Counted from the stretch's first letter, positions 29,206 to 58,040 are shown. The stretch: 64,000 nt of DNA from Candidatus Falkowbacteria bacterium (GCA_016214745.1 JACRNW010000001.1:1038-65037); one strand, 5' to 3'. Numbers and translations are program-made. The notes: a model not told the origin generated them from the letters alone.

Positions 29206-29257
29206 TTGAGGTCGCATGGATAGTACTTTCCCAAGACCACAAGAAGGAGGTGGGGCT

Positions 29258-29938
29258 ATGGGTTGTGAAAATGATTTTGACCAGCTACGTGATCTTACCG
29301 CGCGGCAACTGTGGATGGCACTCGCGGCGGCCTACCAGGCGCTCGCGGCGGACGAAGCCCAGATCAGGGGGTTCGGTGCCGTAGTCGTAGAGGCCGATGC
29401 TCGAATCGAGGAACTCGAGAGCGAGGTCAAGCGTCTGCGACGGCTCTTGGGCATTGACTTCTTGACCGGAGTCCCAAATCACTACCACATCATGGGGCTT
29501 CTGGAAAGAGAAATCGATCGCTCTAGGCGTTCCGGCTCCACTTTCAGCCTACTCTTCCTGGACATCGACCGCTTCAAGAACGTGAACAGCAACTACGGAC
29601 ACGAGGTCGGCAGTGCTGTCCTCCACGAACTGGCCAAACGGCTCGAGGCAGCTCTGCGACTCTCCGACGCCTTGGGACGATACGGCGGAGAGGAATTCAT
29701 CTTCATCCTTCCCAATGCGCCGCGAAAGGGAGCGGAAATCGCCGCCGAACGACTTCGGAAACTCGTCGCCGCCGAACCCTTCAAGATCGGCGACAAGTCC
29801 GTGGCCGTGACAGTGAGTATCGGCGTTGCCGAGTTCCGACGGACGGATACGGCGTCAAGCCTGATCGAAGCGGCGGATATGGCCATGCTCCAAGCCAAGG
29901 ACTTGGGCCGTAACCGCGTCGTCTCGGCTGAGCGATAG
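29258..29938 (+). CDS. GGDEF-domain diguanylate cyclase with N-terminal coiled coil, GC-rich (~62% GC)
   Basis: RYGGEEF is the GG[DE]EF active site, with upstream DxLTG-like DFLTGVPNH and ...FLDIDRFKNVN. The likely start is ATG 29258 after a strong SD; the ORF track starts at 29216. Confidence 0.85.
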   Translation: MGCENDFDQLRDLTARQLWMALAAAYQALAADEAQIRGFGAVVVEADARIEELESEVKRLRRLLGIDFLTGVPNHYHIMGLLEREIDRSRRSGSTFSLLFLDIDRFKNVNSNYGHEVGSAVLHELAKRLEAALRLSDALGRYGGEEFIFILPNAPRKGAEIAAERLRKLVAAEPFKIGDKSVAVTVSIGVAEFRRTDTASSLIEAADMAMLQAKDLGRNRVVSAER

Positions 29939-40750: not shown

Positions 40751-41713
40751 TTATAAAGTAGTAATTGGCCTGGACTGGACGATGTAAAATTTCCTTTTTT
40801 CCAGTGCCCATTCAATATCGCAAGGAAATTTATAATGCTTTTCAATCGCCGCGCAGATTTTTGCGAGATCAACAATTTGCCGGCCGTCCAGTTTCTGGCG
40901 GTTCCGCAACTTTCCCGGCACTGGTTTCCTAAAAACCCCGGCAGGGCCTTTCCTTGTCCGCATCATTTCCTGCTCGCTTACATTTATGTCTAAAATTTCC
41001 CAATGCCTTTTGTCTAAAACATATGCATCCGGCGTTACTTCCCCGCCGACAAGCGACTCCCCAAGCCCAAAACAGGCTTCAATTATCATCTGATTTTTAT
41101 CACGCGTCACGGGATGGACCGTAAAACAAACGCCAGCCACTTCCGATTGCACCATTTTTTGCACCACGACCGCCACAGAAACGTGCGACCGGCGCAAACC
41201 TTTTTCATTACGGTAAAAAATCGCCCGCTCCGTAAAAAGCGACGACCAACATTTTTTTACCATGCCTAATAAATTTTGCCGCGTCACATTTAAATATGAT
41301 TCCAACTCTCCGGCCCAGGAAGCCTGCGAAGAATCCTCGGCCGTTGCCGAAGAACGAACCGCCACAAGCAAATATTTTGACGCCGCAGTTTTGGCCAAAA
41401 CGTCGTAGGCAGACAAAATTTCTTTTTGCAAATCAATTGGCATTCGCGCGTCATGGATCAAATCACGAATTTTTAGCGAGGCCTGATCAACCGAATTTAC
41501 ATCTTTATAATTTATTTTATCCAAAGCCGCTTCAATTTCCACTCCCAAATCCGTTTCTTTCAAAAATCTTTCAAACGATTGGGCTGTTACCACAAATCCG
41601 GGCGGCACATTAATTTTTGCGCTGGTCATTTCTCCGAGCGACGCTCCTTTTCCCCCGGCTAATTTCACGTCTTTTTTAGAAATTTTTGAGAATGGCAAAA
41701 TAAATTCTTTCAT
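40751..41713 (-). CDS. stand-alone PPDK_N ATP-grasp domain protein (PEP synthase / pyruvate phosphate dikinase N-terminal nucleotide-binding domain)
   Basis: VKLAGGKGASLGEMTSAKINVPPGFVVT...AVRSSATAEDS...IVQSRPITTL. It has the PPDK_N domain and no His or TIM domain. Confidence 0.8.
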   Translation of the reverse strand: MKEFILPFSKISKKDVKLAGGKGASLGEMTSAKINVPPGFVVTAQSFERFLKETDLGVEIEAALDKINYKDVNSVDQASLKIRDLIHDARMPIDLQKEILSAYDVLAKTAASKYLLVAVRSSATAEDSSQASWAGELESYLNVTRQNLLGMVKKCWSSLFTERAIFYRNEKGLRRSHVSVAVVVQKMVQSEVAGVCFTVHPVTRDKNQMIIEACFGLGESLVGGEVTPDAYVLDKRHWEILDINVSEQEMMRTRKGPAGVFRKPVPGKLRNRQKLDGRQIVDLAKICAAIEKHYKFPCDIEWALEKRKFYIVQSRPITTL

Positions 41714-41723
41714 ATAATTTAAA

Positions 41724-43340
41724 TTATTTAATAATTTTTACCACGCCGTGATTGGCGTCCACCTCTACTATATCGCCATCTTTTAAAACCTTTGTCGCGA
41801 TTTTGGTGCCGATGACACAGGGAATACGAAGTTCGCGAGCCACAATTGCCGCATGAGAAGTTACCCCACCCTGCTCCGTAACAATAGCTGCGGCTTTTTT
41901 CATGGCTGATACTAAATCTGGATTAGTGGCGATAGAAACTAAAATATCGCCCTTCCGCATCTTTTCCATGTCTTCGGGATTGATAACAATTCTCACCGCA
42001 CCCTTCGCTTTTCCTACACAACCACACTGACCTTTTATTTCGCTGACTTCTTCTGCCCCTTTTTCCCGAACTGATTCCGCTAACCTTTTTGCCTTCTCGC
42101 CCGTAAAGACCACGTCTCTCTCCTTTTCGGCGTAATAAACGCAAAGTTTTGTCCGCTTCTTAATTTCTTTTTTATCAAGTCTACTTTTCAAAAGAGCTGC
42201 CCCAACTTCCTGCGGCAGCATAAATTTTACTTGCATCAAACTCAAACCCAGTCTTCTTCCGATCTCCCGTAAAATCGCTTCCATTTGATAAATAGCAAAT
42301 ATCTGCGCATAACGGCGGTATATTTTTGTAATCATAAAATTGCCAAAAGCATCAAAAATTTTTCTCCAGCCGCCTTTGATTTTCAATTTTTTAATCAATG
42401 CATTTCTTTTTCGAACGCCCACTTTAAACTCCTGCTGCATTTCTTGATATTTCTTTTCCAAATCACCTGATACCACAAGCCTCACCAATTCTTTCAGATA
42501 ATGATCAAAACTGTAAATCCCCTGCTTTTCAGTAAAAAGATATCTCATGTAAAAATACTTAAGATAATGTTTTTCTAAAAGTTTATAAATTTCCGGACCA
42601 ATTCTTTCTTTGATTTTTCCCGCTTCTTGCTCAAACAGTTCTTCATATTTTTTTGAATGGGTTTTAAAACCGTACTTTGTTACCTCCCCCTCTTTAAACT
42701 TTTTAAATAATTCCAGAAATAATTTGAGCTGATTTTTGTCTTGTTGAACTTTTTGACCAATTTTCAAAAGTTCCTCTTGTTCAACTTGAATAAGAGATTT
42801 TTGGATTGGCTGAGTAAGAATGACTAGATGTTCATTTATTTTTTCTTCGGAAATTCCAGCGTCTCGCAGATGCTCTTTTAATCGATTAGTCAGATTATTG
42901 TGAAACATGTCAGCAGCAACCGGAATCCATCCCCAACAATAATAGTCAGTGTGAATTTGGTCATGCTTATTGTAAAATTTCCACAACTCTCGTTTAGACA
43001 ATTGCGATAAATTATCTTGTGGCAAAGTATTGGCGTAATTTCTTAACTTATCTGACCAGATTATAATCTCTTTGTTGACCCGCTCGGCGAACTTTGGATT
43101 TTTAATAAATTTTTGGACTATATTCTCACCAACCTCAAAGGAATCATTTTCCCCGTAATAAAACCAAAGATGATAACCGCGATAAATACAAATAATTTTT
43201 TTATAAGCACGACCAGTGAATCTCTTAAATTCATTAACAAAATTTGAAAGCCAGATCTGAGAAAATAAAAAATCGCAATTTGGAATCTCTTCCCCCAACA
43301 TCCACAAGTCTTTGTCATTTAAATATTTCAGCTTTTTCAT
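41724..43340 (-). CDS. PEP-utilising-enzyme mobile (phosphohistidine swivel) domain protein with ~380-aa helical N-terminal domain, paralog 1
   Basis: C-terminus [30 protein letters not shown]. Confidence 0.75.
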
Positions 43341-44839
43341 ATTTTTAATTGTTTCACAACTTTTATTACTCCTTTTGTAGCGTCGACTTCCACTAAATCT
43401 CCATCTTTTAAAACTTTAGTTGCGATTTTGGTGCCAATGACGCAAGGAATTCCCAACTCGCGGGAAATAATGGCGGCATGGGAAGTTATACCGCCCTCGT
43501 CCGTAACAATAGCCGCGGCTTTTTTCATCAAAGGCACATATTCCGGCCTCGTCATGCCGGCTACTAAAATTTCTCCTTTTTCAAGCTTAGCGCCTTTTGG
43601 ATTTAATACTACACGCACCCGCCCCCGAACTTTTCCTCCGGAAGCCGCTGAACCCTTCAATATATTATCTTTGATTTGAATATTTTGAGCAATGATCTTT
43701 TCGGCAAACTTTAAATATTTTTTTCCAGACAAAATTATTCTTTCTCCGTCGTCTTTGTTAATTGATATAAATAACTTTTGGCGCCGTTTTATTTCTTCTT
43801 TGTCATATTGACCATTGGATTTTAAAAATTCAATAAACTCCGGCGCAATCATAAAATGTAAATCAACAAAGGGGACGTTAAACTTTTTGGCTGCTAATTC
43901 CATAATTGTACCGACGGCGTAATTCATATATAAGCCGGTTTTCTTTCTAGCATCTTGCCAAAAACTGGCCACGGCAAACATTTCTAAAAATTGTGCGTCT
44001 TTTTTTAATATTAAATATTTTTTAATCAATTCCCGTTTTTTAGATTTAATATTTTGTTCGTAGTTTTCCAATTTTTCTATTTCTCCCTTGATCTCCCGCC
44101 GAGATTTACCCCTAGTAAGTTCTTGGGCACTTCGCCAAAATTCCCTTTCGCTCACATTTTTATGTTCATAATAACCATTCTCTATCCAAAAATATTTCTT
44201 TTGATGAGATTGAATTAATTGTTTTATTTCTCGAGAAGCCGATCCGTAAGATTTGATTAATTGATCTTTGGCTTTCAGCGCAATGCGCATCAAACCAAGA
44301 TTATTTTCCGCCGAGAAACTCAAACGAGGCTCTTTTAATAATTTAAACAAATCATCGCCGGAAATTTTATATTTATTCTTTATTCCATTTATGTCCTCTT
44401 CGCCAATCATTGATGGCGCTTCAGGTATTGTGGCTCGCCCAAATTCGTAATGAAATTTTTCGGTAATCAATCTATATGATTCCAACAATGGCAGAAAATT
44501 GTTTCTTGCTCTTTGCTGGACAAGGTCAATAAATTCTTTCGCTTCTTTCTGCCAAATGTCAAAATGGTCTTGCACTTTTTTAATATTTTTCTTAAACCAT
44601 TTATAATTCTTAGCCAATTCCGCCTTGTCAAGCACCCAATGAGCTTTCCTGCCGCCATCAAAAATCACACTAAATAAAAATGTATTCATTGAAAACCCAA
44701 GCGTGTCTTTGCTACCGGCACACCAGGCCTCCTCCGCGAGATCATCAAAATGCGGACGCAAAACCGGACCATAAATAGATTTATCCTTTATTGCCTTCAA
44801 TTTTTCTTCCAATATTTGTAATTTTTCCCGGTCATCCAT
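43337..44839 (-). CDS. phosphohistidine swivel domain protein, paralog 2
   Basis: [30 protein letters not shown], plus the shared N-domain motifs ([12 protein letters not shown]; ...[10 protein letters not shown]). Confidence 0.75.
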
Positions 44840-45118
44840 ATATTTATTTTTTGTTCATGTTTCTTTTTCAGTCTCCTTGTCCAATCTAATCGCGTCGCAA
44901 TAATGCGCAGACACCGCACCCATTTGACAAAATTTTCAAAATAGATTATACTATATTGTTTGGTAAAGGTGAAAAATTGTCTGATTCTAGACAATTTTTC
45001 CCATACTAAATTGCACTTTGATAGTGGGCAAAAATTGTTTGGAGACGCTCTATTTATCTCGGTTGAGGTAACGAGAGCGTCTTCAAACAACCGCCCCGAG
45101 GGGGCAAGGAGGAGATCA

Positions 45119-45727
45119 ATGCCCGCAACGATCGTCGTGGTTCGCCATCCCGAGAAGGACGGAGACAAGATCACCCCGCACGGCGCAGAGCAGGCCTTTG
45201 CGGCGGCGCTGGCGCTCGGCGAACGGTTCAAGAACTTCGAAGGGTTCGACCGGCTCATCCACTCCGGCGCGCACCGCGCCTGGCAAGCGCTCCGCGTCAT
45301 GGCCGCGGCCCTGGGTCTGAAACTCCCGGACGAAGAGCGCTCCTTCTTGAACTTCACGGCCACACTCACGCAGACGCTCGGCAGCTCCGACGCGTTCTAC
45401 GCCGAAGTGGCCAAGATGAAGGCGGCGGAAGGAACGGACCGGCTGACGCTCGCCATGGCGCTCCGCCACAGCGAGTTCGCTCGCCAAGGCCGCCAGATCA
45501 TGATCAATGGTCTCCTCGGTCTTGCCTGTGACATGGCGATGAGGGGCCAGGCGACGGCACTCACCGTTTCCCATTCGCCCTGGCTCGAACTGGCGTCCTT
45601 CGACACCGAGAACACGCCCTACGGCATCGGCGAAAGCGATGCCGTGATCTACGTCGTGGCGGGCGACGAAATCCTCGTCGGGAGCGAACTCGTCCGAGCC
45701 CCGCTCCCCGGCAAGCCGCTTTTCTAG
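45119..45727 (+). CDS. histidine phosphatase superfamily protein (SixA/PGAM-like), GC-rich (~64%)
   Basis: MPATIVVVRHPEKDGDKITPHG (RH-type catalytic motif) and a later TVSHSPW. A strong SD CAAGGAGGAG precedes ATG 45119. The ORF track's longer frame from 44960 is AT-rich leader. Confidence 0.55.
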   Translation: MPATIVVVRHPEKDGDKITPHGAEQAFAAALALGERFKNFEGFDRLIHSGAHRAWQALRVMAAALGLKLPDEERSFLNFTATLTQTLGSSDAFYAEVAKMKAAEGTDRLTLAMALRHSEFARQGRQIMINGLLGLACDMAMRGQATALTVSHSPWLELASFDTENTPYGIGESDAVIYVVAGDEILVGSELVRAPLPGKPLF

Positions 45728-45757
45728 CCTACCTCACCTTTCCCACCGAAGTGCATC

Positions 45758-45796
45758 TCCCACGCCCGGTCTCCTGACTGGGCGTTCTTTTTTTAT
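45758..45796 (+). terminator. rho-independent terminator
   Basis: CACGCCCGGtctcctgaCTGGGCGTTCTTTTTTTATTT. Confidence 0.5.
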
Positions 45797-46051
45797 TTAC
45801 CCTGTTAAATAAGATTTGAGCCGATTCCTTAAAAATAACTTGCCGAGATAGGTCTTTAAATACTTTTCTCTATGGGTGGCATCTTGTTGATTCAAACAAG
45901 CCTCATAATATATTAAAACTAATGGCCCTCTGTCTTTAGTAGATTCAACTTTCCTTTTTTGATGAAGCTCAAATCTTGATTTTAAATCTTTGGTATAACC
46001 TGTGTAGAATTTTTTATCCTTTAAGGACATCAAAACATATACGTAATGCAT
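45797..46051 (-). CDS. GIY-YIG nuclease superfamily small protein
   Basis: 84 aa. HYVYVLMSLKDKKFYTGYTKDLKSRFELHQ is the GIY-(10-11)-YIG module. Confidence 0.7.
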   Translation of the reverse strand: MHYVYVLMSLKDKKFYTGYTKDLKSRFELHQKRKVESTKDRGPLVLIYYEACLNQQDATHREKYLKTYLGKLFLRNRLKSYLTG

Positions 46052-46061
46052 AGATTTAAAA

Positions 46062-47576
46062 TCATTTAACGGGGTGAATTTTTTTAACTACTCCTTTTGT
46101 CGCGTATACTTCAACTAAATCTCCATCCTTCAAAACCTTCGTCGCGATTTTTGTTCCGATGACGCAAGGTTTTTTCATTTCTCGGGCGACAATGGCCGCG
46201 TGGCACATAATGCCGCCTTCGTCAGTGACAATAGCCGCAGCTTTGCGAATGGCGGGCATTAAGTTTGGGCTAGTGGCGGCGGAAACCAAAATATCTTTTT
46301 CATTCATTTTTTTTATTTCTTCGGGAGTATTTATCAACTTCACCTTTCCCCTTGCCTTACCCTTAAAGGCGACTGCCCCAGTAATTTCCTTCACCGCTTT
46401 TATCTCTTTCTCTTTCCCGGCATTCTCGTGAAAAAAATCTTGCGCCTGTTTACCGGTCAGACAAAGTTTTCTTCCGCCCTTTCTCCCGTAAACAACTAAT
46501 TTAATTCGTTCGTTAATAACGCCAGAATTAATTTTCCCCCTAAGCAATGCCTCTTCCATTTCTTCCGGCAACATCATCCTGACTTGTTTCAAACTTAGAC
46601 GTAAACGTTTTGCAATTTCTTTTAGTAAAAATTCTGCGTGATAGTATGACCAGGTTTGTAATTCGCGGCGATAAGGTTTGAAAAAGACCAAATCCCTGGC
46701 TAACTCAATGATATTCCGCTCGTAATCGTTGGCTTTAATTTGTTTTAATATTTTCTTTTGCTGTGATCTAATATCTGATTTACTCTTTTTGTGTTCTGCT
46801 ATTTCCTTGGAGGGATTTATTTCCCGACGAATAAAATCTTTGATTATATCAAGAAAATAAATATGATCTGCCGCCGGTCCCTCGTAAACGTAATGCACCC
46901 AAGCGTATCTTTGGGTATGATTATCCACCAACCGCCAAACTTTTTTATTATTCTCCCTAATATATTTTACTAATTCTTGTGAATCTAAAACTTTAAATTT
47001 CTTTTCCAAATTTTTATATTTTTTAATTTGAATCAAAACTTTCAAGAGATCCAACTCCTGCTGTTTATTAAAGGTTTCACGCAAGGGCGTAGTCAGTTCT
47101 CCAAAATATTTTTCCGCTTTTTTATTTTTAAGAATTCTATTTAATTCATCCGATAAAAAAGTCGTGTTTTGATAATCCAAGAGGGGAGAAATTAAACCAT
47201 ACGCATACACTTCTTGATTTGATAACACATAATGCTGATAATAATTGTTCAAAACTCTATTACTCTTTCCTTTTAAATTACTTTTAAAAATTTTCGTAAA
47301 AGATGCCTGTTCCAAACCAAGTTTTTCCATTTGCGAAAAAATATTTCTCAAAAAATTTTGATTTTTCTTAATTAGTTTTACAATTGCAAAATGTGCCGCG
47401 CCCCAATTACTCGGCAGATGATAATACTCAATCGCGTTATTCTCAATTTTGAAAAAAAGGTCCCCCGACTTCCCTATTATCTTTTTTATATTTTTGCTGA
47501 ACGCTTCTACCATCGTGAATATGGGAAATAGAGAAACAACATATTCATTGGCTATCTTTTGCCATTTTTCTTTCAT
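46062..47576 (-). CDS. phosphohistidine swivel domain protein, paralog 3
   Basis: [30 protein letters not shown], plus the shared N-domain motif QRYAWVHYVYEGP. Confidence 0.75.
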   Translation of the reverse strand: MKEKWQKIANEYVVSLFPIFTMVEAFSKNIKKIIGKSGDLFFKIENNAIEYYHLPSNWGAAHFAIVKLIKKNQNFLRNIFSQMEKLGLEQASFTKIFKSNLKGKSNRVLNNYYQHYVLSNQEVYAYGLISPLLDYQNTTFLSDELNRILKNKKAEKYFGELTTPLRETFNKQQELDLLKVLIQIKKYKNLEKKFKVLDSQELVKYIRENNKKVWRLVDNHTQRYAWVHYVYEGPAADHIYFLDIIKDFIRREINPSKEIAEHKKSKSDIRSQQKKILKQIKANDYERNIIELARDLVFFKPYRRELQTWSYYHAEFLLKEIAKRLRLSLKQVRMMLPEEMEEALLRGKINSGVINERIKLVVYGRKGGRKLCLTGKQAQDFFHENAGKEKEIKAVKEITGAVAFKGKARGKVKLINTPEEIKKMNEKDILVSAATSPNLMPAIRKAAAIVTDEGGIMCHAAIVAREMKKPCVIGTKIATKVLKDGDLVEVYATKGVVKKIHPVK

Positions 47577-47591
47577 ATTTTTACTATTAAT

Positions 47592-49127
47592 TTACTTAAT
47601 TACTTTTACCACTCCCTTTGTCGCGTCTACTTCCACCAAATCTCCGTCTTTTAAAATTTTACTAGCATTTTTTGTACCAATAATACATGGCTTATTCATC
47701 TCGCGCGCGACGATTGCCGCATGAGAAGTAATGCCGCCGATATCTGTCACGAAAGCCGCGGCTAATTTCATGGCTGGCAAAAGCTGAGGAATGGTTTGAA
47801 CTGCCACTAGAATATCATCTTTTTTTATTTTCTTCATCTCGTACGGCTCGTTGATAATTTTCACCACTCCCCTAACCTTGCCGGCGCAGGCAATATTACC
47901 TTTAATAACACCTGTTTTGACTACCCGCTCGATCTGGAATTTTTCTCTGATAATTTTTTCGGCTTTTTCCCCGGTAAAAATTCTTAAATCGTTAAGATCC
48001 TTAACGTAATTTACGCAAAAATTATATCTTTGTCTCAACATGCTAACCCTGGGAATTTTTCCGCCCCTTAGCATTCTAATGAACTCGAATCTGGTTAAAT
48101 TTTGTAAATCCTTGTAATCTTTTCCTGAACTCCGGGCAAATCTTTTTAAGGATAAGGTCAAAAGGTAAAAAGTGAAAAATAGTAATTCTGAACGAATCAT
48201 CTTTGCTCCGGCAAATTCTCGGGCAGTCTCAAAATAATGCCTTTCACCCTCATCCAAATTAAGCTCTTTGAAATACTGCTCTTGCAATTTAATCAAAGGT
48301 CGCAAGTCAACTGATTCTTTTAAATTTCCTAATTCTTTTTTATCTTCTAAAATCACCTCTATTTTTTCTATTAATTTTTTCAGATCCATTTCTGGGCCAA
48401 TGTGACCGTAGTCTATCCATCTAAACTGATAAACCAAATCATTCAATCCCGAGAACAAGGCGGGGTAATTCCTTTTCAATAATGAAAATAACCTTGGGGT
48501 CGGGCTTTCCAAAAAAATATTTTTTATTTTTAATCTTTCTATTTCCTGACAAATATCAAATAATTTCTTTTTAAAAATAAAACTTTTTGTTTTTAACGAT
48601 GTCTTACCTAAAACGCCCACATAACTCCCAAGGGATCTTTTCAATTTATATTGCTCAATCTTTTTATTAACAATTTTTTCCAAAGCGTTGGAAAGCCCGT
48701 AGTGACTTAAATCGGCCATCACTGCTCCAAACCCCACGCTGCAAATTTTAAAAAATGTTTCAATTGCCTCTTCCCATTTATCGGCTATCTTTTTGAAATT
48801 GGGATTTTCATTTTCCAACAAATCAAAGATTTCATAATATTTTTTATAAAGATCAACCGCAATCTCTTCGGTTTTGATCAATATCTTTTTCCCATAATTT
48901 TTTTCACTATGAATCTTCTTGGCAATTTTTTCTCCCAAAACCCGCAAAATATCTGGATTGCAAAACCATTCTTCCGTGCCTCCTTTAAAGAGGACATAAT
49001 TATCTCTCATCCGGGGCAATCCCAAATATTCCTCTATTAATTTATGAGAAAATGCTTCTTGGTTAATGGTAATATTAAGAAAAACGGTATTATTTTCTTT
49101 GTGGGTTGAAACGTATTTCTTTTCCAT
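47592..49127 (-). CDS. phosphohistidine swivel domain protein, paralog 4
   Basis: [30 protein letters not shown], plus the N-domain motif QFRWIDYGHIGP. Confidence 0.75.
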   Translation of the reverse strand: MEKKYVSTHKENNTVFLNITINQEAFSHKLIEEYLGLPRMRDNYVLFKGGTEEWFCNPDILRVLGEKIAKKIHSEKNYGKKILIKTEEIAVDLYKKYYEIFDLLENENPNFKKIADKWEEAIETFFKICSVGFGAVMADLSHYGLSNALEKIVNKKIEQYKLKRSLGSYVGVLGKTSLKTKSFIFKKKLFDICQEIERLKIKNIFLESPTPRLFSLLKRNYPALFSGLNDLVYQFRWIDYGHIGPEMDLKKLIEKIEVILEDKKELGNLKESVDLRPLIKLQEQYFKELNLDEGERHYFETAREFAGAKMIRSELLFFTFYLLTLSLKRFARSSGKDYKDLQNLTRFEFIRMLRGGKIPRVSMLRQRYNFCVNYVKDLNDLRIFTGEKAEKIIREKFQIERVVKTGVIKGNIACAGKVRGVVKIINEPYEMKKIKKDDILVAVQTIPQLLPAMKLAAAFVTDIGGITSHAAIVAREMNKPCIIGTKNASKILKDGDLVEVDATKGVVKVIK

Positions 49128-49136
49128 AAAATATTC

Positions 49137-50675
49137 TTAAATTTTTTTCACAATCCCCCTTGTCGCATCAACCTCCACTAAATCTCCATCCCTCAAAACT
49201 TTCGTAGCAATTTTCGTGCCGACGACACAGGGAATTTTTAATTCCCGAGAGACAATCGCCGCATGGCACGTCAAACCGCCAACGTTCGTAACAATAGCCG
49301 AAGCAAGTTTCATGGCCGGAACAAGAGCCGGATAAGTTGTTTCGCTCAACATCACATCTCCCTTTTTCATTTTTTTCAAATCATCTACTGTCTCAATTAT
49401 TGACACTCGCCCCTTCGCCCTTCCTGGCGAAGCGCAAATCCCAAATAATTTTTCTACTTTTTTAACTTTCTGTTCAACAAATGTAGATCTGTCCAGAAAT
49501 TCCTGCGCCGCCTTACCGATATAAACCACCGGCCGATGAACGCTATCGGTATAAATCAGACTAAAATTATATCTCTCATTTAATTTGTTGGCATCATACT
49601 TATCTTTTAATAATGCGTCTTTCACCTCCCAATTACAGAAAAATCTTACCTGCCTTAAACTTAAACCAAGTCTTCGTCCAATTTCTTTGGCTATTTTATC
49701 CAAAACATAGGCGCCATAATACATACAATCTTTGCGCCAACTCTTCAACCAAACAATATCTCTTGCGATATCAAAAAGTTTTTTCTCTTTCTTGCTAAAA
49801 TTTAATTGTTTAAAAATTTTTACCCTTTTTTTCTTTATCTCCGCAAATTTATTCTTACCCTCTTCTATCAATTCCTCAATATTATTTTGTTTCAGAAGTC
49901 CTCGCCAAATTTCCAAAAAATATTCTAATTCAAGAACTGGCCCTTCGTAGTTATAGTGTAACCAAAGATATTTTTGATAATGCTTTTTTATCTTCTGTTG
50001 TAAAGAGGGGCTAATCTTGTTCAGATTTTTTTTGATCTCATCAATATTATTTTTCAAAAATAAATTTTTTGTTTTCTGATCTTTTTTCAACAACTTAACT
50101 AACTCTAATGATTCTTTTGATTCAATCTCAATAAAACTGGATTTTTCGGGGGTGGTAAGAACACTAAATGTCTCTGATAATTTTTGATCAGATTTAACTT
50201 TCTTTTTTAATAAATCTAAAAGATAATTACTAAAAAGTTGGCGATCAGCTTCCAGGAGCCACGTGGTTATTTGTCCAGGAAGATGAGACCAATATTGGCG
50301 GTCAATCAATTGATCAAAAACTCCCGCCAATTGCTTGCCTGATAGTGCCGAAAAATCTTTATTTTCTAAACTTTTTGCAAAAGAAAAATAATTCTTGGTA
50401 TATTTTACCAATTCTGAATTTCTTTTTTCTGTCCATTCGGGATATTTAACAGTTTTATTGAGCAAAAAATTTATACCCTTAGTAAAATCATCTCTTAAAT
50501 AACAAAGTGTAAGCGTGCCTTCATTTACAATAAATAAAACATGCTTGAAGTGTGGGCCGCCGCCTTTTTTCTCTATGTAAGTACCGTACTCTTCAAGAAA
50601 CGGCACAAGCATAAGGTAGTTGCACTTTGGGATTTTTTCAATTTTGAACCATCTAAATTTCTTTATTTCTTCCAT
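49137..50675 (-). CDS. phosphohistidine swivel domain protein, paralog 5
   Basis: ASAIVTNVGGLTCHAAIVSRELKIPCVVGT, plus N-domain motifs QKYLWLHYNYEGP and [13 protein letters not shown]. Confidence 0.75.
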   Translation of the reverse strand: MEEIKKFRWFKIEKIPKCNYLMLVPFLEEYGTYIEKKGGGPHFKHVLFIVNEGTLTLCYLRDDFTKGINFLLNKTVKYPEWTEKRNSELVKYTKNYFSFAKSLENKDFSALSGKQLAGVFDQLIDRQYWSHLPGQITTWLLEADRQLFSNYLLDLLKKKVKSDQKLSETFSVLTTPEKSSFIEIESKESLELVKLLKKDQKTKNLFLKNNIDEIKKNLNKISPSLQQKIKKHYQKYLWLHYNYEGPVLELEYFLEIWRGLLKQNNIEELIEEGKNKFAEIKKKRVKIFKQLNFSKKEKKLFDIARDIVWLKSWRKDCMYYGAYVLDKIAKEIGRRLGLSLRQVRFFCNWEVKDALLKDKYDANKLNERYNFSLIYTDSVHRPVVYIGKAAQEFLDRSTFVEQKVKKVEKLFGICASPGRAKGRVSIIETVDDLKKMKKGDVMLSETTYPALVPAMKLASAIVTNVGGLTCHAAIVSRELKIPCVVGTKIATKVLRDGDLVEVDATRGIVKKI

Positions 50676-50910: not shown

Positions 50911-51204
50911 GTGGTAAAATTTAAGATTAAAAATATGGACCAAGATTTGTGCTATTGCGGCGAAAGAGCTGTCCGCGGCGAAGGACTACTCCGGAATACA
51001 ATGTCCTGCCCGGCTTGCGGCAGTGAGTGGGAAATCACTCATTGTTGGAATTGCGGCGAACAAATTGACGGACGCTTTTCTTCCACCTGCCGCTCATGCA
51101 GCTGGTATCTCTGCGCCAAATGCGGGGCCCACGAACCGGATTGCACGCACACAATCAAGGCAAGTTTGAAAAACGCCGCCCACTACCAGGGCACTTTTAT
51201 CTAA
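50911..51204 (+). CDS. small Cys-rich zinc-ribbon protein (4x CxxC)
   Basis: CYCGE...CPACGSEW...CWNCGE...CRSCSWYLCAKCG. The start could be GTG 50911 or ATG 50935. Confidence 0.5.
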   Translation: MVKFKIKNMDQDLCYCGERAVRGEGLLRNTMSCPACGSEWEITHCWNCGEQIDGRFSSTCRSCSWYLCAKCGAHEPDCTHTIKASLKNAAHYQGTFI

Positions 51205-57082: not shown

Positions 57083-57211
57083 ATATTAAAAATTAATCTC
57101 TTTTGCTCCTTAATCCTAATAAAATACGTGTTTTTTGTCAATTTAAAAAAACACCGCTTCGGCAATGTTTGGTTGCCAAAACGGTGTGTCACCTCCTTCT
57201 CCTTGTCGCGA

Positions 57212-57430
57212 TCAGGCCGCGGCGGGCTTGCGCGCCTTCGCCGCCTTGACCATGGCGCGAAGCTCCTCGCTGCAGAGATCGTGCCAACGCGCGATGAAAT
57301 TGTCCACCTTCTCCTGCGGACAACAGCCGCCCGCTTCAGCAAGATGGATGAGCCGGACAACCTGAACCTTCTCGTGCCGAATCCTGGCCAGCTCACTGCG
57401 CCTCTTTCTGGGCTTGTGCCTTCTCGCCAT
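57212..57430 (-). CDS. small basic hypothetical protein, GC-rich
   Basis: 72 aa, MARRHKPRKRRSELARIRHEK..., high GC3. Confidence 0.35.
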   Translation of the reverse strand: MARRHKPRKRRSELARIRHEKVQVVRLIHLAEAGGCCPQEKVDNFIARWHDLCSEELRAMVKAAKARKPAAA

Positions 57431-57451
57431 AACGCGCCTCCTGCAGCCGAA

Positions 57452-58040
57452 CTACAGCCCGGCCTTGGCCAGAGCCGCGAGCGACCGACCGTCGGTGGAC
57501 TGCCTCCGGAACTCGTCCGGGGTCATGCCCTCCGCATCCGGGAAGTCGGCGTTCACGAAGGTAGACGGCGATCACGCCCGCAATGCGCTGAGGATTCGAC
57601 TCGAAGAAGTTCGAATCGTAGAAGTTGCCGACGAGCTTGCCCTTGTCGGCCAATTCGCCCTTGGAGATACTGGACGGCCTGAGCTCCAAAACCTCGCCGT
57701 TCAGGCCCTTGGTCCTTCGCACCCGCACCCGCGGCGCGCCGTATCTGTTCATCTCGATCACGACGTGGCCCACGACGCGCGGACTGCCGTCCTCGGGCGG
57801 CGGGACATTCGGCTCTTCGTAGAGCGCGATCTGTCCCCAACCGCCGCGATCCACGTAGCGGGCGTCGTGGAACTTGCCGTCACCTCGACCACTTCGACCC
57901 GTCGCCGGGTCGAAGCACCAAAGCTCGGCGGCCTTGCCTCCGCCGATCTTGGCGCCGCGCACGTCATCGGGTTCGAGACAGACGACGACATTCTCGCCCA
58001 GACGCCTTTGCGCCTCTTCCAACGTGATGATCTCCGGCAT
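57452..58040 (-). pseudogene. GC-rich hypothetical gene with apparent frameshift near 57545..57575
   Basis: A strong SD (AAGGAAGGAGAGGAG) precedes ATG 58040 (MPEIITLEEAQRRL...). A high-GC3 frame runs to ~57560, where GC3 signal switches to another frame that ends ...TFVNADFPDAEGMTPDEFRRQSTDGRSLAALAKAGL* at 57452. The tail of the track ORF (57393..) is an Arg/Gly-rich off-frame readthrough. Confidence 0.45.

Follow-up and report, generated by a model that had tools for sequence, protein, structure and literature searches.

In the two-component enzymes HpeHI, CreHI and PpsAB, an ATP-grasp subunit works together with a second subunit that unites substrate and swivel domains; the known members, from Actinomycetota and Pseudomonadota, share about 45% pairwise identity and have phenolics as substrates, and HpeH loses its activity when the His is mutated (PMC12167813). 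For rifampin phosphotransferase (RPH), mutagenesis has shown R666 and E667 to be essential for the second phosphotransfer (PMC4844700). Here we describe a locus of Candidatus Falkowbacteria (Patescibacteria), contained in a 64-kb window (the whole stretch of DNA that was analysed), which is probably a hub-and-spoke version of a two-component RPH-like small-molecule dikinase. An initial annotation had already read it as a split RPH-like system, with one ATP-grasp subunit and several carriers that join a substrate domain to a swivel domain, and this reading is supported computationally by the end-to-end alignment of the ATP-grasp, the conserved layout and the existence of grasp-carrier fusions.

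Gene layout and domains of the locus

The minus strand carries all six co-oriented ORFs at the positions claimed initially, one for a stand-alone PPDK_N ATP-grasp and five for proteins of about 500 aa with a swivel domain at each C-terminus (p1 to p5 below):

40751..41713, minus strand: ATP-grasp (PPDK_N) subunit, 320 aa; last of the string; proposed shared ATP-binding hub
41724..43340, minus strand: carrier p1, 538 aa; RPH-like N-domain and C-terminal swivel; His496; PF00391 E 2.2e-26
43337..44839, minus strand: carrier p2, 500 aa; His454; PF00391 E 9e-28; 4-nt overlap with the p1 start
44924..44952, plus strand: candidate sigma-70-like promoter match, TTGACA-17-TATACT, 11/12; consensus match only
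45119..45727, plus strand: hp, predicted histidine-phosphatase-superfamily protein, 202 aa; opposite strand to the array
45762..45785, plus strand: candidate terminator-like hairpin, 10-bp stem with 7 GC pairs, then a T-run; consensus match only
46062..47576, minus strand: carrier p3, 504 aa; His459; GGIMCH; PF00391 E 4.5e-23
47592..49127, minus strand: carrier p4, 511 aa; His469; PF00391 E 3.8e-25; most divergent N-domain
49137..50675, minus strand: carrier p5, 512 aa; His471; first of the string; paralog chosen for modelling

The six genes do not form one unbroken string: at 44840-46061 the array is split by two genes that had been omitted, hp on the opposite strand and an 84-aa GIY-YIG gene. 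The promoter-like sequence upstream of hp is the best sigma-70-like match of the region, and the hairpin behind hp could have a second role in ending the convergent p5-p4-p3-GIY unit. Core genes (S41 protease, rplI, pyrG) flank the locus in the window as well as in the related locus L005.

PF01326 is the sole Pfam domain of the 40751-41713 product and covers it at near full length (E 1.4e-103, profile positions 2-311 of 328), which bears out its description as a stand-alone PPDK_N ATP-grasp. Residues 1-320 align end to end with residues 1-316 of RPH-Lm; among the ATP-binding residues K22 is kept, R120 matches R117, and S139 takes the place of T136 (Thr to Ser). Stand-alone orthologues in 80 species genomes, spread across classes, are 58-69% identical to it. 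The protein scores 244 bits with PpsA, 193 with RPH and 172 with 9goj, a 387-aa stand-alone ATP-grasp chain which we take to be HpeI; with the NCBIfam models for PEP synthase (NF005057) and RPH (NF041857) it reaches 354 and 272, under the respective cut-offs of 598 and 999.

All five carriers terminate in PF00391 (Pfam, E 1e-23 to 1e-28), the PEP-utiliser swivel that had been assigned to them. Among these paralogs identity amounts to 52-65% in the swivel and to 22-29% in the N-domain, in line with the high N-domain divergence noted before, and a Pfam search of the five N-domains matched no family. The catalytic His of the GGxxxH loop is present in each of the five. The stricter loop motif GG[VIL]T[SC]H, said to be common to all of them, does not extend to p3 with its GGIMCH, and only 2-3 of the five carriers show the N-domain motifs [QE][KR]Y.W..Y.YEGP and [12 protein letters not shown] in strict form. 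The initial annotation had made its reading depend on conservation of the swivel His: this residue is found in 215 of 215 surveyed carriers, as is an R-E pair at His +6 and +7, and T-[SC]-H is the motif in 174 of the 215. The carriers score 107-130 with NF005057 (cut-off 598) and 55-97 with NF041857 (cut-off 999); swivel and ATP-grasp both score nearer to PpsA than to RPH and have PEP synthase models as their top NCBIfam matches, an affinity that we count against an RPH-like dikinase. Pfam found no PF02896 (PEP-utilizers_C) in the six proteins, and phmmer as well as tblastn with the PpsA barrel of L083 detected no PEP/pyruvate TIM barrel in the 64-kb window, where the claimed absence of this domain is therefore borne out.

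The AF2 model of p5 (pLDDT 92.5, pTM 0.88) has RPH-Lm as its top whole-protein structure match. NCBIfam models of the RPH/PRK06241 type align with residues 326-496 of p2, RPH-like models with residues 322-511 of p4 and one such model with residues 267-499 of p3, and RPH residues 626-866 can be aligned to the profile of the carrier family (E 4e-26). According to this profile alignment, whose register may slip by a few residues, K311-x-x-R314-K315 of p5 lies on the helix that bears R666/E667/K670 in RPH, K311 being opposite R666 and K315 opposite K670; conservation is highest at R314, present in 161 of about 181 aligned members. In the same alignment, with the same possible slip, Glu667 of RPH falls on a non-conserved carrier residue, and the lack of a conserved counterpart is likewise counted against a dikinase.

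The N-domains of p1, p3 and p5 have nearer relatives in other genomes than in their own array: p1 is 55% identical to an array member of L072 and 53% to one of L045 (best window paralog 26%), p3 finds its best outside match at 38% in L034, and p5 has an orthologue (66% overall, 61% over the N-domain) in the syntenic locus L001/L005, at the same position adjoining the S41 protease gene. The best outside matches of p2, the second most divergent, and of p4 are 31% and only 25%, respectively. At least three of the five window paralogs represent subfamilies conserved across species; third-codon positions gave no sign of gene conversion.

Distribution in Patescibacteria and the phosphatase-like partner

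The species-genome survey comprised 79 loci with a stand-alone ATP-grasp, and carrier ORFs within 10 kb were counted in the 37 of them with full flanks: none in 4 loci, one in 3, two in 3, three in 10, four in 9, five in 5, six in 1 and seven in 2, i.e. 1-7 carrier genes near the ATP-grasp in 33 of 37. Every surveyed carrier ORF (215/215) has the same orientation as the ATP-grasp gene; 178 of the 215 are located upstream of it. Co-occurrence of the split ATP-grasp with carriers in CPR genomes is conserved in dozens of species, the array layout is widespread in Patescibacteria, and at E<=1e-10 the carrier family numbers no fewer than 2,175 representative clusters. The two parts also occur naturally fused: L002 (677 aa) and L048 (711 aa) combine ATP-grasp, N-domain core and swivel, the full RPH layout is found in one chain in P0280 (829 aa), and in P0287 one grasp is fused to two carriers. 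Two carrier classes of about 600-630 aa bear an N-terminal winged HTH (11 of 19 members match ArsR-type HTH_5, best E 1.8e-5), an XRE-type HTH (E 2e-12) is found in one carrier of 563 aa, and the start of p1 corresponds to the end of the wHTH extension in the class of about 629 aa. Such DNA-binding domains in some family members also fit a regulatory role and are counted against the dikinase.

The hp gene, absent from the initial annotation, is a recurrent, conserved third component of the system. Its product is 100% identical to an annotated 202-aa protein of Ca. Falkowbacteria (P0165) and scores 18.1 bits with Pfam His_Phos_1 (PF00300), under the gathering cut-off of 21.7. The 13 homologues all keep R9, H10 and H152, and nearly all keep R53 and E96; the AF2 model (pLDDT 92) gives 204 PDB fold matches at E<=1e-3 with TMq up to 0.67, those listed (RosC, PGAM-family, PGAM5, CobC, TIGAR) all having the histidine-phosphatase fold. 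By profile, motifs and predicted fold, hp is a divergent member of the histidine phosphatase superfamily (branch 1). The gene has a GC content of 0.655 and a GC3 of 0.84, versus 0.35 in neighbouring genes. At least one histidine-phosphatase-like gene is present in 35 of 50 arrays, usually on the opposite strand, an RH near the N-terminus is found in 50 of 51 array-embedded relatives, and the short hp class lies within or beside swivel arrays in 7/7 contexts. A HAD hydrolase occurs in 15-16 loci, and HD hydrolases are present in arrays of other genomes. Phosphatases beside kinases would amount to a futile cycle if both acted on the same molecules, which is a further point counted against a dikinase.

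Proposed mechanism and alternatives

We infer the following catalytic course. The 320-aa ATP-grasp protein would bind ATP, and the C-terminal swivel of each of the five carriers would dock on it in trans, so that the invariant His could attack the beta-phosphate of ATP, giving His~P with release of AMP and Pi. The charged swivel would then return to its own helical N-domain of about 400 aa, the counterpart of the rifampin-binding domain of RPH, where the conserved cationic residues K311, R314, K315 and R335 (p5 numbering) would hold the phosphate in place so that a hydroxyl of the bound substrate could accept it. That one ATP-grasp may serve all five carriers is suggested by gene linkage, by the conserved swivel and by the natural fusions. 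Each carrier probably has a different substrate, because the N-domains are so dissimilar and at least three of them fall into cross-species subfamilies; scavenged metabolites or cofactor precursors seem most plausible, and xenobiotics are possible. The hp protein (HAD/HD hydrolases in other genomes) might dephosphorylate the products or reset the His~P of the carriers.

It is unlikely that the locus constitutes a regulatory phosphorelay like PTS-Ntr, in which the ATP-grasp would act as an ATP-using Enzyme I and the carriers as sensors or phosphocarriers, with His~P controlling a target or expression, a SixA-like phosphatase resetting the relay and no small molecule being phosphorylated. The swivel and the Enzyme I His domain are indeed homologues, winged and XRE-type HTH domains do occur on some carriers, the phosphatase-like gene has promoter-like and terminator-like sites of its own, and one source gives an hp homologue the name SixA, an enzyme that removes phosphate from phosphohistidine on a phosphotransfer domain. 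However, Pfam detects no HTH domain in any of the five window carriers, and HTH-enzyme fusions such as BirA and NadR are enzymes that repress as well. The N-domain is homologous to the substrate domain of an enzyme and keeps its cationic residues on the helix of the RPH phosphotransfer site, a downstream acceptor protein is not evident in the arrays, the HAD and HD hydrolases of the arrays point to small-molecule phosphoesters, and the top fold matches of hp include the small-molecule phosphatases RosC, CobC and phosphoserine phosphatase. Quite improbable, too, is a role of the carriers in defending an episymbiont against host or community chemistry, each of them inactivating its own antibiotic or toxin by phosphorylation in the way that RPH inactivates rifamycins; for the 'inactivation toolkit' of the initial annotation we found no specific support. 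RPH is the closest solved structure, other antibiotic kinases are said to belong to its family (PMC4844700; PMC12167813), a CPR resistome survey scored some rph-like matches (PMC8651080), and array content varies between syntenic genomes. Yet even the best carrier score of 97 is remote from the RPH equivalog cut-off of 999, the accompanying phosphatases would undo any inactivation, the locus has no mobile-element or resistance context, and the PADLOC defence models gave no match to it. Conservation of the subfamilies and of the ATP-grasp extends across classes and, together with the position between core genes in the window and in L005, makes the locus look housekeeping rather than accessory.

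Very little probability attaches to an energy harvest in the reverse direction, whereby the carrier His would be phosphorylated by energy-rich phospho-compounds and the ATP-grasp would form ATP out of AMP and Pi. The dikinase chemistry of PpsA and PPDK is reversible, some anaerobes and archaea run PPDK or PpsA glycolytically, Patescibacteria live by fermentation under energy limitation, and the PpsA-like character of ATP-grasp and swivel, including the prevalent T-[SC]-H, would suit such a role. Formation of ATP from AMP could, however, be driven only by enol, acyl or N-phosphates, whereas the RPH-like fold is known only for hydroxyl O-phosphorylation; a PEP-binding TIM barrel is missing and the accompanying phosphatases would waste the donor. 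The initial annotation had itself raised the possibility that the genes are remnants of one degraded ppsA whose TIM barrel lies elsewhere; such an origin by decay or splitting of ppsA, with N-domains that are non-functional filler, has practically no chance of being correct. Although PEP synthase models are the best NCBIfam matches of ATP-grasp and swivel, L083 encodes an entire PpsA in addition to the split system (the stand-alone grasp of that locus shares only 35% identity with the ATP-grasp domain of this PpsA, but 59% with the grasp of the window), the family is large and its split layout conserved, the confident N-domain model has the RPH substrate-domain fold, and neither the window nor the other loci that were examined yielded a TIM barrel. 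Within the reach of sequence analysis, these results refute the fragment explanation.

Comparison with known phosphotransfer systems

The dikinase proposed here shares features with several systems. PpsA and PPDK have the same dikinase chemistry and the GGxT[SC]HAAI motif, PpsA offering the closest ATP-grasp and swivel sequences; in the locus, by contrast, the genes are split, an RPH-like helical domain precedes the swivel, which is C-terminal, and with neither a TIM barrel nor scores above the NCBIfam cut-off it does not belong to the PEP synthases/PPDKs. RPH (PDB 5HV1, 5FBS/T/U; PMC4844700) is the best whole-protein structural match, with the same order of substrate domain and swivel, an ATP-grasp aligned end to end and cationic carrier residues that the profile alignment places on the R666/K670 helix. 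It is, however, a single 867-aa chain of about 15% identity, reads M-T-H where the carriers read T-[SC]-H as in PpsA, and has in Glu667 a residue lacking a conserved carrier counterpart; the locus, being neither a single chain nor above the equivalog cut-off, is not an RPH. The prodigiosin ligases PigC and RedH (NF052631, NF052632) are superfamily relatives that likewise combine ATP-grasp, central domain and swivel, and up to about 200 C-terminal carrier residues align with them; they are single-chain, and the carriers score 63-90 against cut-offs of 1300-1350. In enzymes of the PigC/RedH type, phosphoryl transfer can serve to activate a substrate for ligation instead of yielding a stable phosphoester. 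With the bacterial PTS there may be a functional analogy only, one general charging component feeding several specific ones via phosphohistidine; the donor here would be ATP instead of PEP, HPr, a membrane component and the EI C-terminal domain are lacking, and we do not claim membership.

The closest likeness is to HpeHI, CreHI and PpsAB (phenylphosphate synthase), with which the locus shares the polypeptide consisting of ATP-grasp only, the adjacent genes, the subunit with an RPH-like substrate domain followed by the C-terminal swivel, its GGxxxH His and, presumably, a ping-pong transfer from ATP via His to the substrate with release of AMP and Pi. By sequence it stands outside the characterised clade, whose PRK08296-type models (NF006149-NF006153) match the swivel of the carriers only, at 59-103 bits versus cut-offs of 578-730; that the N-domains have no detectable sequence kinship to this clade is also counted against a dikinase. 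A linked histidine-phosphatase-like partner further distinguishes the locus. The initial annotation knew of no description of such an arrangement: the split layout had in fact been described for PpsAB, CreHI and HpeHI (PMC12167813, JBC 2025), but these pair one grasp with one carrier, and what appears to be undescribed is one ATP-grasp beside many carriers, five in this locus and one to seven in its relatives.

An array of one ATP-grasp protein and five carriers

The six genes which the initial annotation had read as a split phosphotransferase system are indeed co-oriented and all found in the ORF list on the minus strand, as follows, together with two genes which that annotation had not mentioned.

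40751-41713, minus: stand-alone ATP-grasp protein (320 aa), PPDK_N domain near full-length (Pfam, E 1.4e-103)
41724-43340, minus: carrier p1 (538 aa)
43337-44839, minus: carrier p2 (500 aa)
45119-45727, plus: histidine-phosphatase-superfamily protein (hp), in the array gap; matches P0165, annotated with 202 aa, at 100% identity, which places the window in a Candidatus Falkowbacteria MAG
45797-46051, minus: stand-alone GIY-YIG nuclease inside the array (84 aa; PF01541, E 5e-14)
46062-47576, minus: carrier p3 (504 aa)
47592-49127, minus: carrier p4 (511 aa)
49137-50675, minus: carrier p5 (512 aa)

The string of six therefore stands as far as its members are concerned, but is broken at 44840-46061 by the two additional genes. 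Elsewhere the spacing is 9 nt between p5 and p4, 15 nt between p4 and p3 and 10 nt between p1 and the ATP-grasp gene, and p2 and p1 overlap by 4 nt; the six genes and hp span about 10 kb, which for a Patescibacteria genome near 1 Mb is roughly 1%. LAGLIDADG endonuclease genes adjoin the array of another surveyed locus (L088, 12000-14545), and selfish endonuclease genes may be settling into carrier arrays. Between p5, the first carrier gene, and an S41 protease gene, a Cys-rich ORF of 97 aa (50911-51204, plus) lies on the opposite strand; its several CxxC pairs are zinc-ribbon-like.

All five carriers end in the PEP-utiliser mobile ("swivel") domain, as had been proposed (Pfam, E 1e-23 to 1e-28), and their N-terminal parts of about 400 aa match no family in the Pfam scan. 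The reported absence of the PEP/pyruvate TIM barrel was borne out as well: PEP-utilizers_C is missing from the six proteins, and no barrel, including any hidden stand-alone copy, was found in the window or the examined loci using that of a true PpsA as probe. Two motif claims need correction, since the swivel signature GG.T[SC]H is found in the other carriers but reads GGIMCH in p3, and the supposedly shared N-domain motifs hold in only two to three of the five carriers. Among the paralogs the swivels are 52-65% identical and the N-domains 22-29%. Gene conversion among the carriers was rejected: the swivels are 56-64% identical in DNA, and the third codon positions of conserved residues agree in 41-54%, so that the swivel similarity reflects purifying selection.

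Conservation and relation to PpsA

The survey of CPR genomes for co-occurrence, which the initial annotation had called for, was carried out by scanning GTDB species genomes and annotating the resulting 80 loci with profile HMMs; a stand-alone ATP-grasp gene is present in 79 of them. In the 37 loci whose 9-kb flanks are complete, this gene has 0 (4 loci), 1 (3), 2 (3), 3 (10), 4 (9), 5 (5), 6 (1) or 7 (2) carrier ORFs within 10 kb. All 215 carrier ORFs share its strand and, as in the window, most lie upstream of it (178/215). The swivel histidine, whose variability would have spoken against the initial reading, is kept in 215/215 carriers, as is an R-E pair 6 and 7 residues past it; R314 (p5 numbering) is kept in 161 of about 181 aligned members of the carrier family. 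The family is large: exhaustive profile searching with the N-domains of all five carriers gave at least 2,175 representative clusters (50% identity) at E<=1e-10, and 3,799 when the threshold is relaxed to E<=1e-3, mostly of about 500 aa.

Stand-alone PPDK_N proteins of 311-345 aa, 60-75% identical to that of the window, are plentiful in Patescibacteria. Across classes the ATP-grasp subunit keeps 58-69% identity, so the system probably matters to these symbionts, of which little is understood and most are uncultured. Many contigs bearing arrays and a 60-67% identical stand-alone ATP-grasp protein are titled "uncultured Gammaproteobacteria", "Planctomycetota", "Nanoarchaeia" or "Bathyarchaeia" (among them L010, L012, L016, L050, L069 and L075); these titles are probably placeholder names or denote mis-binned Patescibacteria contigs. 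Matches such as P0039, labelled Micrarchaeota, may reflect true presence in DPANN archaea.

A syntenic locus (L001/L005) has the same flank order as the window (S41 protease, array, ATP-grasp, rplI, pyrG, C39-like gene, L27), but its carriers differ (534, 432, 357, 469, 342 and 361 aa), and p5 is the sole window carrier with a clear orthologue there (66% identity). The best N-domain identities in other species, 55% for p1, 38% for p3 and 61% for p5, each exceed those to paralogs of the same array; with closer relatives elsewhere and third-codon positions that are not homogenised, at least these three represent old, separately conserved subfamilies.

That the genes are simply fragments of a decayed ppsA, as the initial annotation had itself considered, is refuted, at the level of sequence, by the surveyed loci, in which the split is conserved, and by a Kuenenbacteria locus (L083), where a complete three-domain PpsA stands beside a stand-alone ATP-grasp gene and a carrier. 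This ATP-grasp protein is 35% identical to the corresponding domain of the PpsA in its own genome and 59% to its counterpart in the window. Fusions form a minority of the family: P0280 has the layout of rifampin phosphotransferase (RPH), namely ATP-grasp, N-domain and swivel, P0287 joins one ATP-grasp domain and two carriers in one chain, and the others are tandem carriers; those in L002 (677 aa) and L048 (711 aa) were confirmed by ORF calling on the DNA. Several predicted proteins, P0178 (1500 aa), P0179 (2309 aa), P0181 and P0287, contain two to four carrier units, sometimes with PPDK_N; such very long members could be true mega-fusions or gene-calling read-through under a different genetic code.

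Phosphohydrolases and DNA-binding domains in the arrays

The Pfam match of hp to His_Phos_1 is weak (18.1 bits, cut-off 21.7). Its R-H...R...H catalytic core is kept across a 13-member family, and the model (pLDDT 92) has 204 PDB matches at E<=1e-3; those listed are all histidine-phosphatase folds, headed by RosC (a flavin-5'-phosphate phosphatase), a PGAM-family protein and PGAM5. Every examined context of this short class is in or beside a carrier array (the window, L002, L069, L079, L088, L089, L090), opposite in strand to the neighbouring carriers except in L069, a contig without a carrier on that side. An earlier HMM of four sequences matched 11 loci only; clustering of the non-core array ORFs with an iterated profile yielded 51 histidine-phosphatase-like ORFs inside arrays, the RH motif being present in 50 of them. 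Two size classes can be told apart: ORFs of about 200 aa are mostly opposite in strand, and those of about 300 aa lie on the same strand. Of the 50 arrays that have two or more carriers, 35 contain such ORFs, and most of the remainder directly adjoin the ATP-grasp gene. A HAD hydrolase (PF00702, E 2.8e-28, in two stretches) recurs on the same strand inside arrays of 15-16 loci; further array genes encode proteins with an HD domain (3 loci) or resembling M29 peptidases (6 loci), and L089 has one that is weakly LMWPc-like. The linkage of the histidine-phosphatase-like, HAD and HD genes to the arrays suggests a system made up of a kinase hub, several carriers and at least one phosphohydrolase.

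The composition of hp in the window is unusual, with GC 0.655 and GC3 0.84 compared to about 0.35 in the carriers, forming a sharp island within 45001-45750; in L002, L069 and L079, too, genes of the short opposite-strand class are richer in GC than the locus around them. Foreign origin or selection on the mRNA could account for this, and hp has promoter-like and terminator-like sites of its own (by consensus match). A structured RNA in the GC-rich 45.0-45.7 kb was ruled out, as the ORF encodes a protein that is already annotated, has conserved homologues and is modelled with a confident fold; the Rfam gathering scan of the window returned four tRNAs only, all outside this stretch. Two other GC-rich islands (0.58-0.65; window otherwise 42% GC) lie at 29216-29938 (plus) and 57100-57800, one with a 240-aa GGEEF (diguanylate-cyclase-like) ORF and the other with overlapping long ORFs on both strands.

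A winged helix-turn-helix stands at the N-terminus of carrier classes of about 600-630 aa, 11 of 19 members having the ArsR-type (HTH_5); p1 is related to the class of about 629 aa but lacks the HTH. Examples of these and of the HAD hydrolase are:

L014, 6190-8079 and 8172-9986: HTH-fused carriers (similar ones in L017, L025, L035, L038, L040, L049)
L090, 2894-4585: carrier with XRE-type HTH (563 aa, E 2e-12)
L047, 2450-3721: HAD hydrolase (423 aa)

Proposed chemistry, substrates and known two-component systems

The AlphaFold2 model of p5 (39-sequence alignment) is confident (pLDDT 92.5, pTM 0.88). RPH is its best whole-protein structural match; the other hits (PPDK, pyruvate kinase, Enzyme I and others) cover the swivel alone, about 100 residues. 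In sequence, the carrier family profile aligns with RPH-Lm residues 626-866 (E 4e-26), i.e. the swivel plus the final ~130 residues of the rifampin-binding domain, and NCBIfam models of RPH/PRK06241 type extend up to 240 residues from the carrier C-terminus. In the profile alignment, the conserved motif K311-x-x-R314-K315 of the carriers (p5 numbering) falls on the helix equivalent to that of RPH R666-E667-x-x-K670, whose residues are required for the second phosphotransfer (PMC4844700); K311 lies opposite R666 and K315 opposite K670, and no conserved residue corresponds to Glu667. Over residues 1-320 the ATP-grasp protein aligns with RPH 1-316, keeping Lys22 and Arg117, with Thr136 replaced by Ser. 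Both this protein and the swivel score higher against true PEP synthase than against RPH, and the carrier His motif is the PpsA-type T-[SC]-H; in this system, therefore, the domains that handle the phosphoryl group are PpsA-like and the substrate domain is RPH-like.

By likeness to RPH (PMC4844700) and the two-component enzymes (PMC12167813), ATP would presumably be bound by the ATP-grasp subunit, on which the carrier swivel would dock in trans to receive the beta-phosphate on its His, with release of AMP and Pi, before swinging back to its own N-domain and passing the phosphate to the bound substrate. The strongly conserved ATP-grasp protein, the well conserved swivels and the highly divergent N-domains, each subfamily being kept across species, fit one hub recognising many carriers, each with its own substrate. 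As substrates we favour scavenged metabolites, since the locus is core-like and conserved and dikinase chemistry renders capture effectively irreversible. The sub-micromolar KM values of HpeHI, consistent with a scavenging role (PMC12167813), argue in the same direction, as do the phosphohydrolases and, in two lineages, riboflavin genes in the arrays, and the resemblance of HTH-fused carriers to the enzyme-repressors BirA and NadR. The riboflavin genes (L005, 4462-6291; L088, 3029-4080), in or beside the arrays, encode flavokinase, riboflavin synthase (Lum_binding) and lumazine synthase; taken with RosC as the top fold match of hp, they could be a clue to the substrate or a matter of chance.

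A pure antibiotic-inactivation toolkit is possible but unlikely, given the conservation across classes, the core genes in the neighbourhood and the phosphatases next to the carriers; as to anti-phage defence, none of the eight proteins matched a PADLOC model. The HTH-fused carriers and the SixA-like partner support a regulatory relay of PTS-Ntr type through the carrier His~P, against which stand the lack of an HTH in all five window carriers and the conserved enzyme-type active-site helix. Operation in reverse, forming ATP, is unlikely, being thermodynamically unfavourable for phosphoesters. A broader scheme, to which we give little credence, is an ATP-driven PTS-like network, in which a single, highly conserved ATP-grasp "E1" would charge a changing set of 2-7 carriers, some of them enzymes for various scavenged metabolites and some HTH-fused transcription factors, with dedicated SixA/PGAM-like histidine phosphatases draining or resetting them. 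If true, ultra-small symbionts would have a core system, so far unrecognised, by which they capture metabolites and signal, and CPR metabolic reconstructions would contain many wrong "pps/PEP synthase" calls.

In practice, what chiefly follows is that CPR metabolic models should not take these genes for PEP synthase. Publicly, the carriers and the ATP-grasp protein are named "phosphoenolpyruvate synthase/pyruvate phosphate dikinase", "pyruvate, water dikinase" or "PEP/pyruvate-binding domain-containing protein", all without having a PEP/pyruvate-binding domain, and such naming can introduce false gluconeogenesis steps. Experimental handles towards the substrates are offered by the linked histidine phosphatases and the HTH-fused carriers.

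The initial annotation knew of no description of the split, multi-paralog layout. The split as such is known from PpsAB, CreHI and HpeHI, described as two-component homologues of RPH (PMC12167813), and it is the one-to-many organisation, along with its breadth in Patescibacteria and the linked histidine-phosphatase partner, that is undescribed in the literature searched, where the arrangement in CPR/Patescibacteria was represented only by a resistome survey counting rph-like hits. By sequence, the window family does not belong to the PpsAB/CreHI/HpeHI clade, nor to those of RPH or PpsA, all NCBIfam scores of carriers and ATP-grasp protein being far below the cut-offs; in architecture, however, it is the same as these two-component systems, and presumably also in mechanism. 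The two-component dikinase subfamily, recently defined for phenol catabolism in free-living bacteria, is thereby extended to a large family. In it a single hub for ATP binding may act for many specificity subunits, and no such modular logic is reported for dikinases in the literature searched.
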